This document shows, in pieces, positions 13,977 to 61,081 of a DNA stretch of 64,000 bases. The DNA comes from an uncultured Candidatus Bathyarchaeia archaeon (GTDB lineage Archaea > Thermoproteota > Bathyarchaeia > Bathyarchaeales > DTEX01): positions 69,174 to 133,173 of the forward strand of contig CAZDRE010000001.1 in the NCBI GenBank assembly GCA_964508155.1. Direction: 5' to 3'. The notes beneath the pieces were generated by a model that was not told the DNA's origin, did no database searches, and was given only the letters and a program-made list of their open reading frames with translations. Position 1 is the stretch's first letter. Every line of letters starts with the position of its first letter. The position numbers were made by a program, and so were the translations under genes.

Positions 13977-14068
13977 TGGAGCCCCGGGCGGGATTTGAAC
14001 CCGCGACCTACGGCTCTCCATCCGCGTTGGATACAAGGCCGTTGCTCTAACCACTGAGCTACCGGGGC
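13977..14068 (-). tRNA. tRNA-Thr(UGU) with 16-nt intron at canonical 37/38 position; CCA encoded
   Basis: The reverse strand reads GCCCCGG TA GCTC AGTGGTTA GAGC A ACGGC CTTGTA[TCCAACGCGGATGGAG]A GCCGT AGGTC GCGGG TTCAAAT CCCGC CCGGGGC T CCA. This gives a full cloverleaf. Confidence 0.85.
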
Positions 14069-33451: not shown

Positions 33452-34606
33452 TCATTCATACAGAAATTTTCCCCATCTGCTCTTTATGACGACGATATTC
33501 TTTCCATGGCTTCTCTCGCATCTACCGATCCTTTTGGCTTGAAGCCCGAAGCTCTCGGAGATGCTTATTATCTCATCCACAGCCTCGGGCCTTGAGATTA
33601 TCTCGAATCCAACGCCCATATTGTAATTTTCGAACATGGCCTTCCACGATTCGCCTGATTCCCTCTGGATAAGCATGAAGATCGGATCTGGCTCTATGAG
33701 GTTATCCTTTATATACTTGATATTGAATCCTACTCTAAGCCCCTTCGTTAATCCCCCACCCATATTATGAACCATACCTGAAATTTCATCTCCGCATTTC
33801 TCCAGTATCTTCCTGATTACTGGTATGAAGAACCTCATGGGCGAGGTTAAAGCCTCACCTACAGTCATGCCTAATTCATCTATGTAATCTTCAACTCTGA
33901 ATCTTCCATAGTATTCTTTTCCCTCTGGATCCATTATCTCCGGATACTTCTCCTGATAATCCCTCTTTAAGAGGCAATGCCTAGCCAACGTAAGCCCATT
34001 ACACATTATTCCGCTATTCTCTCGTTTCTCATATTTGGTTCTTCCCCCGCTTCTCAGGCCAATAATCACATCTCCAGGCTGAATCTCACTTCCAGTTACG
34101 GCCTCTGACAGATCAACCCTTCCATTCACAACTCCTGAGATATCTAATGTTCTGAGTTGGTCTGGGAGATCAGCGGTCTCGCCTCCGGAAAAATAAACCT
34201 TCACGCCTAAACTCTCTAGCAGATCTAGGCACTCCCTGAATCCCTCATTTAAAACCTTTAAGAGCTCGATCTTGGGTAGCCTAAGCGGGTTTAGGGCTAT
34301 GTAATCAACGAAGTTTATGGGCTTGGCCCCGACGCATACGATGTCGTCAAGGTTCATCGCCAAAACATCTTGGGCTAAACCCTTAAACCAAGAGAGATCC
34401 CCCGTCTCCCTCCAATTCAGGTAGGCCTGAACAGGCTTGCTTCCAGCGCTGTCAGCATGAGTTACTATTCCATAACCGGGCATATCAGGATCCTGCGTTA
34501 CAACGCAGAATGCTCCTGGGAAGATATTGCTTATTATCTCGCTGAAAACCTCGATGCCCCTCTTCTTAACGTCAACGCCCGTCTCGGCATATTTGCTCCC
34601 GCTCAT
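33452..34606 (-). CDS. purM: PurM-like AIR synthase (phosphoribosylformylglycinamidine cyclo-ligase)
   Basis: 384 aa. Has an N-terminal YAETGVDVKKRG, then the DSAGSK and MNLDDIVCVGAKP motifs of the PurM superfamily. Confidence 0.7.
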   Translation of the reverse strand: MSGSKYAETGVDVKKRGIEVFSEIISNIFPGAFCVVTQDPDMPGYGIVTHADSAGSKPVQAYLNWRETGDLSWFKGLAQDVLAMNLDDIVCVGAKPINFVDYIALNPLRLPKIELLKVLNEGFRECLDLLESLGVKVYFSGGETADLPDQLRTLDISGVVNGRVDLSEAVTGSEIQPGDVIIGLRSGGRTKYEKRENSGIMCNGLTLARHCLLKRDYQEKYPEIMDPEGKEYYGRFRVEDYIDELGMTVGEALTSPMRFFIPVIRKILEKCGDEISGMVHNMGGGLTKGLRVGFNIKYIKDNLIEPDPIFMLIQRESGESWKAMFENYNMGVGFEIISRPEAVDEIISISESFGLQAKRIGRCERSHGKNIVVIKSRWGKFLYE

Positions 34607-43495: not shown

Positions 43496-43623
43496 TGATC
43501 CCGTAGCGTTTTTCTAGCTTAACTTCTTGGATGATAGATTTATTTTTTCCGCACTTCGGATGATTTTTGGAAAAGAGTATTAAGTTTCTGCTTTACCATA
43601 TATTTTTGGTTACTGGAGGATCC

Positions 43624-44338
43624 ATGTTGGGTAGGGAGTGGGATAGGCTGATCGATGATCTCATCAGGATGGGAATACTTAAGACTCCAAGAGTTATTAG
43701 GGCTATGAGGAAGGTTCCTAGAAGCCTCTTTCTCCCAGAGGAGAATAGGGCCTACGCGGCAGTCGATACTCCGCTACCGATAGGCAAGGGTCAGACCGTC
43801 TCGGCGCCACTCAGCTGATCAAACTCGATCAGCTGGGCGATACATGGTCTCAATAATGAATGAGGCATTGGAGCTCGATATTGGACATAAGGTCCTTGAG
43901 ATTGGAACCGGATGCGGATGGCACGCCTCGACAGTCGCGGAGATCGTAGCTCCAAGCAACATTGATAGGAGGAGGTGGGGCCACGTATACACGATTGAAA
44001 TAATTCCAGAATTGGCTGAGGTGGCGAGGGAGAATATAAGGCGAGCTGGATTCGATGACCGCGTAACGGTGATCTGCGGAGACGGCTCTTTAGGCCTCCC
44101 AGAGGAGGCTCCATTCGACAGGATATTCGTTACGGCAGCGGCCCCCTACGTTCCACCGCCACTAAAGAGGCAACTGAAGAACGGAGGCATACTCCTACTT
44201 CCTGTTGGATCGGTCGGATTCTACCAGACGCTTATTAGGCTCAGAAGGCTTAATGACAAGTTTGTGGAGGAGGATCTAGGCGGAGTTGCTTTCGTACCGC
44301 TGACGGGAAAGCACGGCCACAAGGTATATGGTTACTAG
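43624..44338 (+). CDS. pcm: Protein-L-isoaspartate O-methyltransferase, interrupted: join(43624..43810,43842..44338)
   Basis: ORFs 43567..43818 and 43844..44338 are the N- and C-terminal parts of PIMT in different frames. Exon 1 ends ..GQTVSAP. Exon 2 continues [28 protein letters not shown]. Joining at 43810|43842 gives SAPHMVSIM. The likely start is ATG 43624, after GGAGGA. Confidence 0.8.
43811..43841 (+). other. Putative 31-nt BHB intron within pcm
   Basis: The central 4-bp helix pairs 43805-43808 (cgcc) with 43836-43839 (ggcg). It is flanked by 3-nt bulges 43809-43811 (act) and 43840-43842 (ata). The inner 9-bp helix pairs 43812-43820 with 43827-43835 around loop aaactc. Confidence 0.7.
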
Positions 44339-44390: not shown

Positions 44391-45116
44391 ATGATCGTTG
44401 AGGGGACTCCAGTGGATTCTACGATTTGGCTCGTACTGACAGGCATATTTGTGGTCTTATCAGTCGGCCTAGCAACGCTGCTGATAATTGAGCGTGAAAG
44501 AAGCCGAAAGAATAGGAGTTTAGGCGAGGCGAACTCCGCTCCTATCAGAATTCCATTCGCTACTGAGAGGACTATCTCGCCCAGCCTATATGAGGAGGCA
44601 AAGACGAGGCTTAGAGTGCTCGATCTGGAGAGGGAGATACTGAGCTACGCCATCCGAAGATTATATGAGGCGCATGCGGAGGGCAGAATCACGGAGGAGG
44701 AGAGGGATAGGCTCGTAGAGAAGTATAGGGTCGACCTTGAGAGGATAAAGGAGGAGATAGCAAGGGGAGAATCCATAGTTGCACTGAACGAGCTTGAGAG
44801 GATGAGGGAGGAATTCATCAGGATCTTCTCAGAGAGATTCGATGAACTGACGAGGAGGATCGAGCAGTTAAGGGCCATGACAGGTCTACCCCAGCCGGCA
44901 CCGCAACCCACAGAGGAGAGAATGGAGAAGCCAGCGGCGGGGGAGGAGAAGGAGGAGCCTAAACCACAGCCAGCGCCTAAGCCGAGGAGGAGAAAGACCC
45001 AAATTAAGCCTCCGCCTGAACCTGAAAAGCCTGATGTCGAGAAGAGAGTTGAGCAGATAGTATCCGAGGTCGAGAAGGTCCTTAAAAGGCTGGGACAGAT
45101 GGAAGTTGAGGAGTAG
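44391..45116 (+). CDS. Membrane-anchored coiled-coil protein with Pro/Glu/Lys-rich segment
   Basis: 241 aa. Has an N-terminal TM helix, heptad-rich ER/EL repeats and a PQPAPQP..KPQPAPKP stretch. Sits between pcm and rpiA. Confidence 0.5.
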   Translation: MIVEGTPVDSTIWLVLTGIFVVLSVGLATLLIIERERSRKNRSLGEANSAPIRIPFATERTISPSLYEEAKTRLRVLDLEREILSYAIRRLYEAHAEGRITEEERDRLVEKYRVDLERIKEEIARGESIVALNELERMREEFIRIFSERFDELTRRIEQLRAMTGLPQPAPQPTEERMEKPAAGEEKEEPKPQPAPKPRRRKTQIKPPPEPEKPDVEKRVEQIVSEVEKVLKRLGQMEVEE

Positions 45117-45809
45117 ATGAGCTGGCGTGAGGATGCTAAGCGTAGAGCCGCCTCTGAAGCGGCGAGATACGTTGAAGACGGATTCGTAGTTGGGCTTGGA
45201 AGCGGATCGACAGCCGCATATGCAATAAGGGAGATAGGGCGGAGAGTAAGAGAGGAGGGACTGAGAGTTCTAGGAGTTCCAACGTCATACAGCGCCTTCC
45301 TCCTCGCAGTCAAGTCTGGAATACCATTAACGACTCTTAATGAGCATCCAACACTCGACCTTGACATAGACGGTGCGGACCAGATCGACCGTCGCCTAAA
45401 CCTCATAAAGGGTATGGGAGGGGCCTTAACTAGGGAGAAGATAATCGCCGCCTCATCCAAAAAGTTCGTAGTAGTCGCGGATGAGACTAAGCTGACAAGC
45501 TCATTGGGTGAGGGTCAGCCCGTACCAGTCGAGATCCTGCCATTTGCATTGCCACTAGTCATCGACAGAATAAGGATGATCGGGGGGAGGCCGAAGCTCA
45601 GGGAGAGAAGGGATGGATCAGGACCATACATAACGGATAATGGAAACTTCATTTTAGATGTGGATTTCGGAGCCGTTAAGGAGCCGGCTAAACTGGAGAT
45701 GAGACTTAAGGGCATACCGGGAGTAATCGAGACTGGACTCTTCTTGGGAATGGCTCAAGAGGCAATCATAGGCACGAAGGATGGAATTAAAGTCGTAAGG
45801 AGGACATAA
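45117..45809 (+). CDS. rpiA: Ribose-5-phosphate isomerase A
   Basis: 230 aa. Contains GLGSGSTAAYAI, DGADQID and KGMGGALTREK. Confidence 0.9.
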   Translation: MSWREDAKRRAASEAARYVEDGFVVGLGSGSTAAYAIREIGRRVREEGLRVLGVPTSYSAFLLAVKSGIPLTTLNEHPTLDLDIDGADQIDRRLNLIKGMGGALTREKIIAASSKKFVVVADETKLTSSLGEGQPVPVEILPFALPLVIDRIRMIGGRPKLRERRDGSGPYITDNGNFILDVDFGAVKEPAKLEMRLKGIPGVIETGLFLGMAQEAIIGTKDGIKVVRRT

Positions 45810-60526: not shown

Positions 60527-60695
60527 ACAGACTCATATCTTTTTTGGAAGACTCCAAAACAGCCAAAACTCGATTGGGATTCAAATCGCCAATTTATGAA
60601 CTTTATAAGGGAGGTTTTCATGGTGCCATGAAGAGATCGTCAGAATCAGAGATTTGGATTTGTGGTGGGGCCGGTCGGATTTGAACCGACGACCT

Positions 60696-60726
60696 CTACC
60701 CGATACGGGGCTTAAACCCCGCATCT
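60696..60726 (-). other. tRNA-Trp intron 3 (31 nt, 43/44 junction)
   Basis: Perfect central helix ACCC/GGGT with bulges GT|A and AG|A. The inner hairpin GATGCGGGG/CCCCGTATC is 9 bp. Confidence 0.75.
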
Positions 60727-60732
60727 ACGGGT

Positions 60733-60792
60733 TTCTTCAAGCTCCAGAACCTCATCATTCCCATGATGGGTCTGCAAACCCGTATCTGCATT
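60733..60792 (-). other. tRNA-Trp intron 2 (60 nt, canonical 37/38)
   Basis: The anticodon stem ACGGG/CCCGT serves as the outer helix. The central helix CTCC/GAAG has 3 of 4 pairs. The bulges are AG|A and AA|A. Confidence 0.7.
60737..60791 (-). ncRNA. Box C/D-like guide element embedded in tRNA-Trp intron 2
   Basis: Perfect AUGAUGA at 60752-60758. CAGA at 60771-60774 and UUGA at 60737-60740 are degenerate D'/D boxes. AUGCAGA at 60785-60791 is a weak C box. The 9-nt guides at 60776-60784 and 60741-60749 are perfectly complementary to the tRNA exons. Confidence 0.4.
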
Positions 60793-60812
60793 CTGGAGCC
60801 CGTCGTCATGCC

Positions 60813-60844
60813 GTTCCAGCAGGCCGCCGCATGGGCAAGCCGTT
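60813..60844 (-). other. tRNA-Trp intron 1 (32 nt, D-loop, after position 16)
   Basis: Helix TCTA/TGGA (one G.U) is flanked by bulges GC|A and AC|G. Removal yields D-loop AGCGGCA. Confidence 0.7.
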
Positions 60845-60886
60845 GCTAGACTACGGCCCCCAAAGAATTGTTTAATCCAGCAGCTC

Positions 60887-60960: not shown

Positions 60961-61081
60961 GGCTGCCGGCCATAGGGCGCGGGAACCACCCGAACCCATT
61001 CCGAACTCGGAAGTTAAACCGCGCTCCGTCCCTAGCGGTAGTGCAGTCTTCGGCTGCGCGAAGCTAGGGAAGCCGGCAGCC
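60961..61081 (+). rRNA. rrf: 5S ribosomal RNA
   Basis: GGCTGCCGGCCATAGGGCGCGGGAACCACCCGAACCCATTCCGAACTCGGAAGTTAAACCGCGC...GAAGCCGGCAGCC. Helix I pairs GGCTGCCGGC with GCCGGCAGCC. The loop C/E signatures CCGAAC and GAAGTTAA are present. Confidence 0.9.

Follow-up and report, generated by a model that had tools for sequence, protein, structure and literature searches.

The question raised by this locus is why pcm, the gene for the protein-repair enzyme protein-L-isoaspartate O-methyltransferase (PIMT), stands in two pieces on a contig of an uncultured Bathyarchaeia archaeon. The window referred to below is the whole stretch of DNA that was analysed, 64,000 nucleotides (nt) long. In it, pcm consists of two open reading frames (ORFs) in different frames, ORF1 at 43567..43818 and ORF2, in the +1 frame, at 43844..44338, a split that an earlier reading of the letters without database searches (the sequence-only reading) had pointed out and that the ORF listing confirms. 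That reading had explained the split by a 31-nt bulge-helix-bulge (BHB) intron. The comparative data presented here support its explanation through a common insertion site, a single cut rule, covariation, purifying selection and constrained synonymous sites, and we consider it very probable that positions 43811-43841 are an archaeal endonuclease-type intron, belonging to the relaxed BHB class, inside the coding sequence of pcm.

ORF1 ends as ..GQTVSAPLS* at 43818, on a TGA (43816-18) that lies in frame within the putative intron (43811..43841, + strand; TCAGCTGATCAAACTCGATCAGCTGGGCGAT). Excision of these 31 nt gives GCG CCA C/AC ATG GTC, where the stroke marks the junction, and this reads Ala-Pro-His-Met-Val. 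The predicted spliced junction is ..GGCGCCAC/ACATGGTC.. and the predicted spliced 40-mer is ..ACCGTCTCGGCGCCAC/ACATGGTCTCAATAATGAATG.. Exon 1 (43624..43810, +) would encode MLGREW...GQTVSAP and the first base, C, of a His codon, and exon 2 (43842..44338, +) would contribute the AC of the same codon, followed by MVSIMNEAL...KVYGY and the stop. The joined frame is open and comprises 227 amino acids (aa) counted from the ATG at 43624, so the two cuts placed by the sequence-only reading do restore both the frame and the SAPHMV motif. Against Pfam PF01135 (PCMT) the product scores 204 bits, with a cut-off of 20.3 and E = 3e-60, in one stretch that covers positions 4-209 of 210, whereas neither ORF alone spans the domain. 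The curated cut-offs of two NCBIfam PIMT equivalogs are both exceeded as well (TIGR00080, 212 bits with a cut-off of 159; NF001453, 219.6 bits with a cut-off of 188), and the alignment with the solved PIMTs 2YXE and 1JG1 crosses the junction without a gap, the 1JG1 sequence at that place being GQTVSAPHMVAIM. The predicted spliced product is a full-length PIMT. Concerning the start of the coding sequence, the ATG at 43624 is more likely than the TTG at 43567 from which the gene had earlier been counted, because a GGAGG at 43615-19 precedes it by 4 nt and homologues begin at the same place.

The insert and its borders form a well-defined fold, whose helix, bulge, stem and loop coordinates (all on the + strand) agree base for base with those proposed from the letters alone. 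The central helix H joins CGCC (43805..43808), located inside the Ala-Pro codons GCG CCA, with GGCG (43836..43839) at the 3' end of the intron. On the 5' side it is followed by the bulge ACT (43809..43811), with the predicted cut at 43810/43811, and by the intronic helix h', whose strands CAGCTGATC (43812..43820) and GATCAGCTG (43827..43835) pair perfectly over 9 bp and enclose a 6-nt hairpin loop, AAACTC (43821..43826). On the 3' side lies the bulge ATA (43840..43842), with the predicted cut at 43841/43842 and with its third base, A, serving as the second base of the His codon. This bulge measures 3 nt only when a single pair forms between G at 43804, the first base of the Ala codon, and C at 43843, the third base of the His codon, which is the sole exonic closing pair (h = 1 bp). 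For 43785-43865, the minimum-energy structure given by RNAfold is the BHB-like arrangement, and so is the centroid; the energy is -29.7 kcal/mol (z = -3.38; 2 of 200 dinucleotide shuffles were as stable). Further out, the minimum-energy fold contains a distal exonic helix of 7 bp between AGACCGT (43793..43799, +) and ATGGTCT (43844..43850, +), found for this sequence only. The description of the outer helix as weak, made in the sequence-only reading, is thus borne out, with one pair adjoining the 3' bulge and a helix at a distance. As a conserved feature the distal helix was discarded: a pairing between the third bases of the Gln and Val codons is possible in 76% of the sequences, without covariation.

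In the canonical hBHBh' definition the exonic helix h and the intronic helix h' each contain at least two Watson-Crick pairs (PMC7714728). The pcm motif has the 4-bp central helix and, with 9 bp, an h' well above two Watson-Crick pairs; its h falls short of two. It presents a central helix, a well-formed 5' bulge and an intronic helix, with a 3' site that is weakly closed, and this is the arrangement of the relaxed class (HBh', or bulge-helix-loop, BHL). Hence the motif is relaxed and not canonical hBHBh', because its exonic helix is only 1 bp long.

Is the insert a peculiarity of one assembly? A pattern scan of metagenome contigs returned at least 120 loci, 5 of them chance matches, and the scan loci, the window and the loci of a protein search amount to at least 119 distinct pcm junctions from Bathyarchaeia, in which the insert occupies the identical His codon. 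The best database matches to the spliced product are C-terminal fragments of 164-165 aa (95% and 82% identity), and all contigs that encode these fragments carry a PCMT ORF of 63-64 aa immediately upstream; full-length matches, all from Bathyarchaeia, do not exceed 69% identity. The split falls at the identical codon in relatives of 95%, 82% and 59-67% protein identity. In the 82% relatives the insert is 30 nt long, two hairpin pairs are altered on both sides and a third has become a wobble. A scan of one genome per species located an interrupted pcm in eight Bathyarchaeia metagenome-assembled genomes (MAGs; L006, L007, L019, L036, L044, L047, L048 and L050), with identity down to 59%, and the same scan contained many Bathyarchaeia pcm genes without the intron. 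Intron-less relatives reading SAPHMV had been predicted from the window alone, and they exist in other Bathyarchaeia.

Insert lengths among the matches listed are 28 nt (4 cases), 29 (7), 30 (20), 31 (54), 32 (28), 33 (5) and 35 (1), with all three residues modulo 3 represented; most of this variation arises in the loop, which differs among relatives in both length and sequence. Inserts whose length is a multiple of 3 hold an in-frame stop in 25 of the 25 matches listed, and the unspliced reading reaches a stop within 19 codons in every junction listed. Cutting after the second nucleotide of each bulge produces an open PIMT frame with ..SAPHMV.. in 119 of the 119 junctions listed, and complete ORFs of about 225-253 aa are obtained after excision on all 100 listed contigs that cover the gene.

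These lengths bear on one alternative, translational recoding, in which the ribosome would pass the hairpin on an unspliced mRNA by a frameshift, by stop read-through or by a hop such as that of T4 gene 60. In the window such an event is conceivable, given that no stop interrupts the ORF2 frame anywhere in the insert and that a +1 shift before the TGA at 43816 could yield a fusion with about 10 extra residues; stable hairpins are, moreover, common at recoding sites. However, no single shift fits a family with inserts of 28-35 nt in every residue class, the 30-nt and 33-nt inserts contain at least one in-frame stop, and a hop would find no matching pair of take-off and landing codons that restores the frame (CAT..CAT, in the ACA type, lands out of frame). 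Read-through would also place 9-12 unconserved residues in the most conserved motif of the enzyme. We therefore grant recoding a very slight chance.

If the insert is removed as a structured RNA, its pairing should leave a trace in the family, and the stretch between the 5' bulge and GGCG, which the collecting pattern left unconstrained, is informative in this respect. Among the 119 junctions listed, the 5' bulge is exactly 3 nt long in 117, as given by inner-helix pair 1 being in register; its first base (the third of the Pro codon) is A or T and its second (the first of the His codon) is C in all 119, and its third, the first intron base, is variable. The last base of the insert, in the middle of the 3' bulge, is T, G, A or C among relatives. 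Counted from the bulge, each of the inner-helix pairs 1-6 is present in 93-99% of the 119 and takes 3-6 different forms; pair 1, for example, is C-G in 58, U-A in 53, G-C in 3 and U-G in 3. With 76 diverse sequences aligned by MAFFT, standard pairs fill 90.5% of the inner-helix cells vs 23-40% when one strand is slid by 1-3 columns, and double-change cells number 222 vs 15-56 in the slid controls. All 9 pairs of the intronic helix show changes on both sides, and between clades the stem sequence is wholly different with the pairing kept. RNAalifold predicts H, the 3-nt bulge and h' for the family, and the minimum-energy fold of the CGCC..GGCG segment adopts this topology in 110 of the 119 listed. 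The closing pair is G-C in 76 of 76 sequences, both bases being fixed by the search pattern. The protein search imposed no such constraint, and of its 14 loci 13 have GGCG as the 3' strand of H; the only deviant, L007 2356-2476 (PIYH01000025.1), has GACG and a C.A mismatch, explicable by a sequencing error or by tolerance of the mispair.

The codons around the insert carry a corresponding signature. Among the alleles of the protein search, the Ala codon is GCG in 11 of 11 insert-bearing vs 12 of 21 intron-less alleles, the last base of the Pro codon is A or T in 11 of 11 vs 11 of 21, and the His codon is CAC in 11 of 11 vs 11 of 21, the intron-less alleles also using CAT. The three together (Ala GCG, Pro CC[A/T], His CAC) occur in 11 of 11 insert-bearing alleles and in 0 of 21 intron-less Bathyarchaeia alleles, counts which, coming from related sequences, are indicative and not true probabilities. 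The three synonymous sites that are fixed in insert-bearing alleles only are those that form the central helix, bulge position 1 and the closing pair. Concerning the protein itself, the ratio of nonsynonymous to synonymous substitution rates (dN/dS) against the relative L001 amounts to 0.089 in exon 1 and 0.064 in exon 2, and in more distant pairs dN stays well under a saturated dS. These values indicate that both exons are under strong purifying selection, in line with the earlier argument that pcm is no decaying pseudogene.

Selection of this strength also bears on a second alternative, that the gene is decaying or the insert is an artefact, be it an insertionally disrupted pseudogene, a mistake of assembly or a small mobile element of palindromic sequence. 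The GenBank label 'partial' on a relative's C-terminal fragment and the near-perfect palindrome of the insert could be taken in its favour. Yet over 100 independent assemblies, produced at several sequencing centres, contain the insert, dN/dS is 0.06-0.09 in both halves, and excision leaves complete ORFs on all 100 covering contigs listed. The hairpin is single-copy within the 64-kb window, with no dispersed repeat, and a family covariance model finds a sole match there, 43804-43854 at 62.3 bits. Furthermore, stems that differ entirely between clades have preserved their pairing. The comparative data effectively refute decay or artefact, whose remaining probability appears negligible.

A more serious alternative takes pcm as genuinely split, with polypeptides of about 64 aa and 164 aa that assemble, and with the hairpin as an intercistronic RNA structure acting on stability or translational coupling. 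Annotation is compatible with it, as two ORFs are called in every relative (one C-terminal fragment is deposited in GenBank as 'PIMT, partial'), ORF2 always starts with ATG, and purifying selection on both halves would equally be expected. However, that ATG is the conserved Met of SAPHMV, which is found in unsplit genes too and is no compensating start, and it lacks a Shine-Dalgarno-like motif, whereas the exon-1 ATG has GGAGG. The C-terminal tails of ORF1 vary in length and sequence (LS*, LG*, HS..* up to 17 codons), and neither polypeptide of the window type would retain the conserved His. Nor does a split gene account for the precise geometry, in which a 4-bp helix is followed by a 3-nt bulge and then directly by a hairpin, for the fixed synonymous sites, or for the fixed C (5' bulge position 2) and A (3' bulge position 3), which together spell CAC. 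The contrary case named in the sequence-only reading, the same stop with compensating starts, is absent from the relatives, whose stops vary in position and kind. We regard a genuinely split pcm as improbable.

An internal control for the intron reading is provided by the tRNA-Trp(CCA) gene of the same window (60663..60860, - strand), which was recognized by a T-loop motif search and manual BHB excision, and which ARAGORN, as well as Rfam at gathering thresholds, missed. It has three introns on the - strand, namely intron 1 in the D-loop (60843..60814, 30 nt), intron 2 in the anticodon loop (~60794..60735, 60 nt) and intron 3 at position 43/44 (60726..60696, 31 nt), so two of the three are at non-canonical positions. 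When the 30-nt and 31-nt introns are cut by the rule used for pcm, ARAGORN reports a tRNA-Trp(CCA) with a 60-nt anticodon-loop intron. The sequence-only reading had all three introns obeying the rule; the gene and two introns stand, but the anticodon-loop intron misfits the strict BHB rule, and a brute-force search for a strict-BHB combination failed. Intron 3 has the architecture of the pcm intron: its H measures 4 bp and its h' 10 bp, a 3-nt bulge is present, and an exonic helix is absent. Since tRNA-Trp needs such introns removed, the genome must, to judge from this gene, possess an endonuclease that acts on relaxed motifs. It is from this control and from the restored frame that we infer the cut sites in pcm. 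A 5S rRNA gene (60962-61081, +) lies about 100 nt from the tRNA-Trp gene.

Several observations weigh against the intron reading. In the RNAfold structure the 3' site is part of a 5x4 internal loop, which the distal 7-bp helix closes, and the exonic helix is a single G-C pair (G43804-C43843), under the 2 bp of the hBHBh' criterion (PMC7714728). The exon flanks of the relatives' junctions show no covariation, either by column composition or by mutual information; at the next exonic position the third base of the Ser codon stands opposite the A of ATG, giving G.A in the window, with T, G, C or A among relatives. The collecting pattern fixed GCGCC, GGCG and ACATGGTNTCNAT, and the invariance of the central helix in the loci it returned is not independent, its conservation being judged independently from the 14 protein-search loci only. 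The sequences are mutually related, so that neither the shuffles (0 of 500 reached the observed pairing and double-change values) nor the Fisher figures express true probabilities. Among 20 window ORFs scanned there is no EndA or RtcB gene. Finally, database proteins resembling a spliced cDNA include none that is full-length above 69% identity to the window product, or above 85% to the product of the relative L093.

Read as an intron, the element suggests the following course of pcm expression. In the pre-mRNA, the 4-bp central helix would arise by pairing of the Ala-Pro codons (CGCC) with GGCG at the intron's 3' end; a 3-nt bulge would separate this helix from the 9-bp intronic hairpin on the 5' strand, and the 3' bulge would be closed by one G-C pair. 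The tRNA-splicing endonuclease would then cut each bulge behind its second nucleotide, at 43810/43811 and 43841/43842. A host of relaxed BHB introns would be expected to encode such an enzyme of broad specificity, either (alpha-beta)2 with the crenarchaeal loop or epsilon2, along with an RtcB ligase. Here it is presumably (alpha-beta)2, the broad-specificity form typical of TACK archaea, a type assigned from taxonomy. An RtcB-type ligase would join the exons, and the intron would probably be circularised. The ligated mRNA would direct the synthesis of the intact 227-aa enzyme, the His codon of SAPHMV being assembled across the junction, and unspliced mRNA would give a 64-aa N-terminal fragment only. 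PIMT production would in this way depend on splicing, and the intron may act as a brake on expression, although a regulatory role is speculation.

How does such an element compare with known systems? Relaxed BHB motifs (HBh' / BHL) of non-canonical tRNA introns were reportedly described by Marck and Grosjean in 2003. The pre-mRNA intron of crenarchaeal cbf5 is said to go back to Watanabe and colleagues in 2002 and to Yoshinari and colleagues in 2006. Besides a 5' untranslated region (5' UTR) element of Haloferax, cbf5 holds the only other BHB intron reported in archaeal mRNA (PMC7714728), and introns had been predicted for other archaeal genes, with none confirmed as of 2009 (Yokobori et al. 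2009, PMC2738675); the coding-sequence precedent is thus limited to cbf5, as the sequence-only reading had put it. The cbf5 introns measure 16-44 bp, frequently have relaxed motifs, interrupt the codon of a catalytic residue, have been lost in some lineages and have been confused with frameshifts (PMC2738675). Endonucleases of the (alpha-beta)2 type, present mainly in the TACK superphylum including Bathyarchaeota, accept relaxed motifs (PMC7714728) and splice the cbf5 pre-mRNA (PMC7714728, PMC2738675).

The likeness between the pcm and cbf5 introns is extensive. Both are short (28-35 nt vs 16-44 bp), lie within a coding sequence and are of a BHB type that is often relaxed; both break a codon in the most conserved, active-site-proximal motif, and both include length variants that keep the frame yet need removal. 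They are patchy, with intron-less alleles in related lineages, occur in TACK hosts and are miscalled by gene callers as two ORFs or as a frameshift. The differences concern the gene, cbf5 encoding an RNA pseudouridine synthase and pcm a protein-repair methyltransferase, and the hosts, which are Desulfurococcales or Sulfolobales for cbf5 and Bathyarchaeia for pcm. They also concern the evidence, since splicing of cbf5 was shown by reverse-transcription PCR and in vitro cleavage, whereas the pcm intron is known here from sequences alone.

The relaxed tRNA introns, tRNA-Trp intron 3 included, resemble that of pcm in the 4-bp H, the 3-nt 5' bulge, the hairpin of 9-10 bp, an exonic helix that is short or missing, the length of 31 nt and the cut rule. 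However, tRNA-Trp intron 3 has no sequence similarity to the pcm intron, the host RNA of the latter is an mRNA, and the exonic strand of its central helix is made of codons and is coding-constrained. In Haloferax volcanii, the splicing endonuclease likewise acts on an mRNA, that of HVO_1309, and so on a target other than tRNA or rRNA (Schwarz et al. 2020, PMC7714728). There the element is in the 5' UTR, and the host is a euryarchaeon without the (alpha-beta)2 type of TACK archaea, whereas the pcm element is in the reading frame and needs precise removal. In eukaryotes, the HAC1 and XBP1 mRNAs are cleaved by Ire1 and joined by tRNA ligase or RtcB under stress regulation. With pcm they share a short mRNA intron whose excision is non-spliceosomal, guided by stem-loops and frame-changing, and they offer a model for an expression switch, but they differ in the nuclease (Ire1), the recognition motif and the regulation by stress.

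In the literature that was searched, cbf5 and HVO_1309 were the only cases returned, with nothing on a pcm intron, and the terms isoaspartate, intron, archaea and splicing endonuclease were combined in no paper found. With this intron, pcm would follow cbf5 as only the second protein-coding gene of archaea known to require splicing. The kind of element is known from cbf5; what would be new is a coding-sequence intron of the endonuclease type in another gene and another archaeal class.

As to the history of the intron, in a rough neighbour-joining tree of pcm products the insert-bearing genes occupy at least three separate positions between intron-less genes of Bathyarchaeia. Intron-less full-length products (P0012, P0021 and P0038) are up to 84-85% identical to the spliced L093 product, and because of this identity loss or gain of the intron can be evolutionarily recent, as far as these sequences tell. 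The patchy distribution agrees with an ancient intron that was lost repeatedly; recurrent gain at this one position is a possible alternative history. One further locus, L054 3001-3669 (CAWDEY010000014.1), is labelled as a Nitrospira MAG and carries a Bathyarchaeia-type pcm that is nested inside Bathyarchaeia in the tree and has two frameshifts elsewhere in the gene; it looks like a mis-binned contig with indel errors and not like an intron case.

Directly downstream of pcm lies a gene at 44391-45116 (+) that belongs to a conserved family of 241-250 aa without a Pfam match and encodes an N-terminal hydrophobic segment followed by a long, charged, coiled-coil-like region. It is followed by the gene for ribose-5-phosphate isomerase A (rpiA; 45117-45806 in the window), and the order of the three genes is retained in relatives, where the middle gene is found at L001 1955-2680 and L003 3569-4321. 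Clustered at 90% identity, the Bathyarchaeota rpiA product has one companion deposited as 'Archaeoglobales archaeon' (RLI75278.1), an organism label that probably stems from mis-binning in the study it came from.

Other motifs of the window were surveyed too. A scan for H, a bulge and a hairpin gave about 25 matches with stems of at least 7 bp, with no excess over shuffles (10-33); stems of at least 9 bp were found only in pcm, in tRNA-Trp intron 3 and in a hairpin at 34484-34512 (-). The geometry of this last one equals that of the pcm intron (4-bp helix, 3-nt bulge and 9-bp hairpin), but it was rejected as an intron, being located in an intact purM-like ORF of 384 aa (33452-34606) whose frame a 29-nt excision breaks, and it is most likely a chance look-alike. 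A permissive scan of the window for excisions that merge two ORFs returned, besides pcm, only noise at gene boundaries. A further tRNA gene of 92 nt at 13977-14068 (-) has an anticodon-loop intron of about 16 nt and is called tRNA-Gly(TCC) by ARAGORN at default settings and tRNA-Ser(TGA) with -i, its intron boundaries, and hence its anticodon, being ambiguous.

What, then, would a pcm intron mean for these archaea? After more than 20 years a second, unrelated gene would indicate that mRNA splicing by the tRNA machinery is no one-off, the more so in a different archaeal class and conserved in more than 100 lineages. A broader picture, which we put forward tentatively and hold to be rather doubtful as a whole, is that the intron is old and selectively maintained in Bathyarchaeia, couples synthesis of the repair enzyme to EndA and RtcB in a manner resembling HAC1/XBP1, and belongs to a set of mRNA introns that are much commoner than cbf5 suggests, systematically hidden as 'partial' or split genes in MAGs. 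The at least 119 natural variants constitute a data set on what the endonuclease may need in an mRNA substrate, and they point to a 4-bp helix, a 3-nt bulge, an intronic hairpin and a C at the 5' cut, with almost no exonic helix. Calling pcm as two ORFs or as 'partial' in MAGs would skew metabolic reconstructions and pseudogene counts. With its patchy distribution and intron-less alleles up to 85% identical, the gene may serve as a system in which gain and loss of archaeal introns can be studied, in a lineage of abundant but uncultured sediment archaea.

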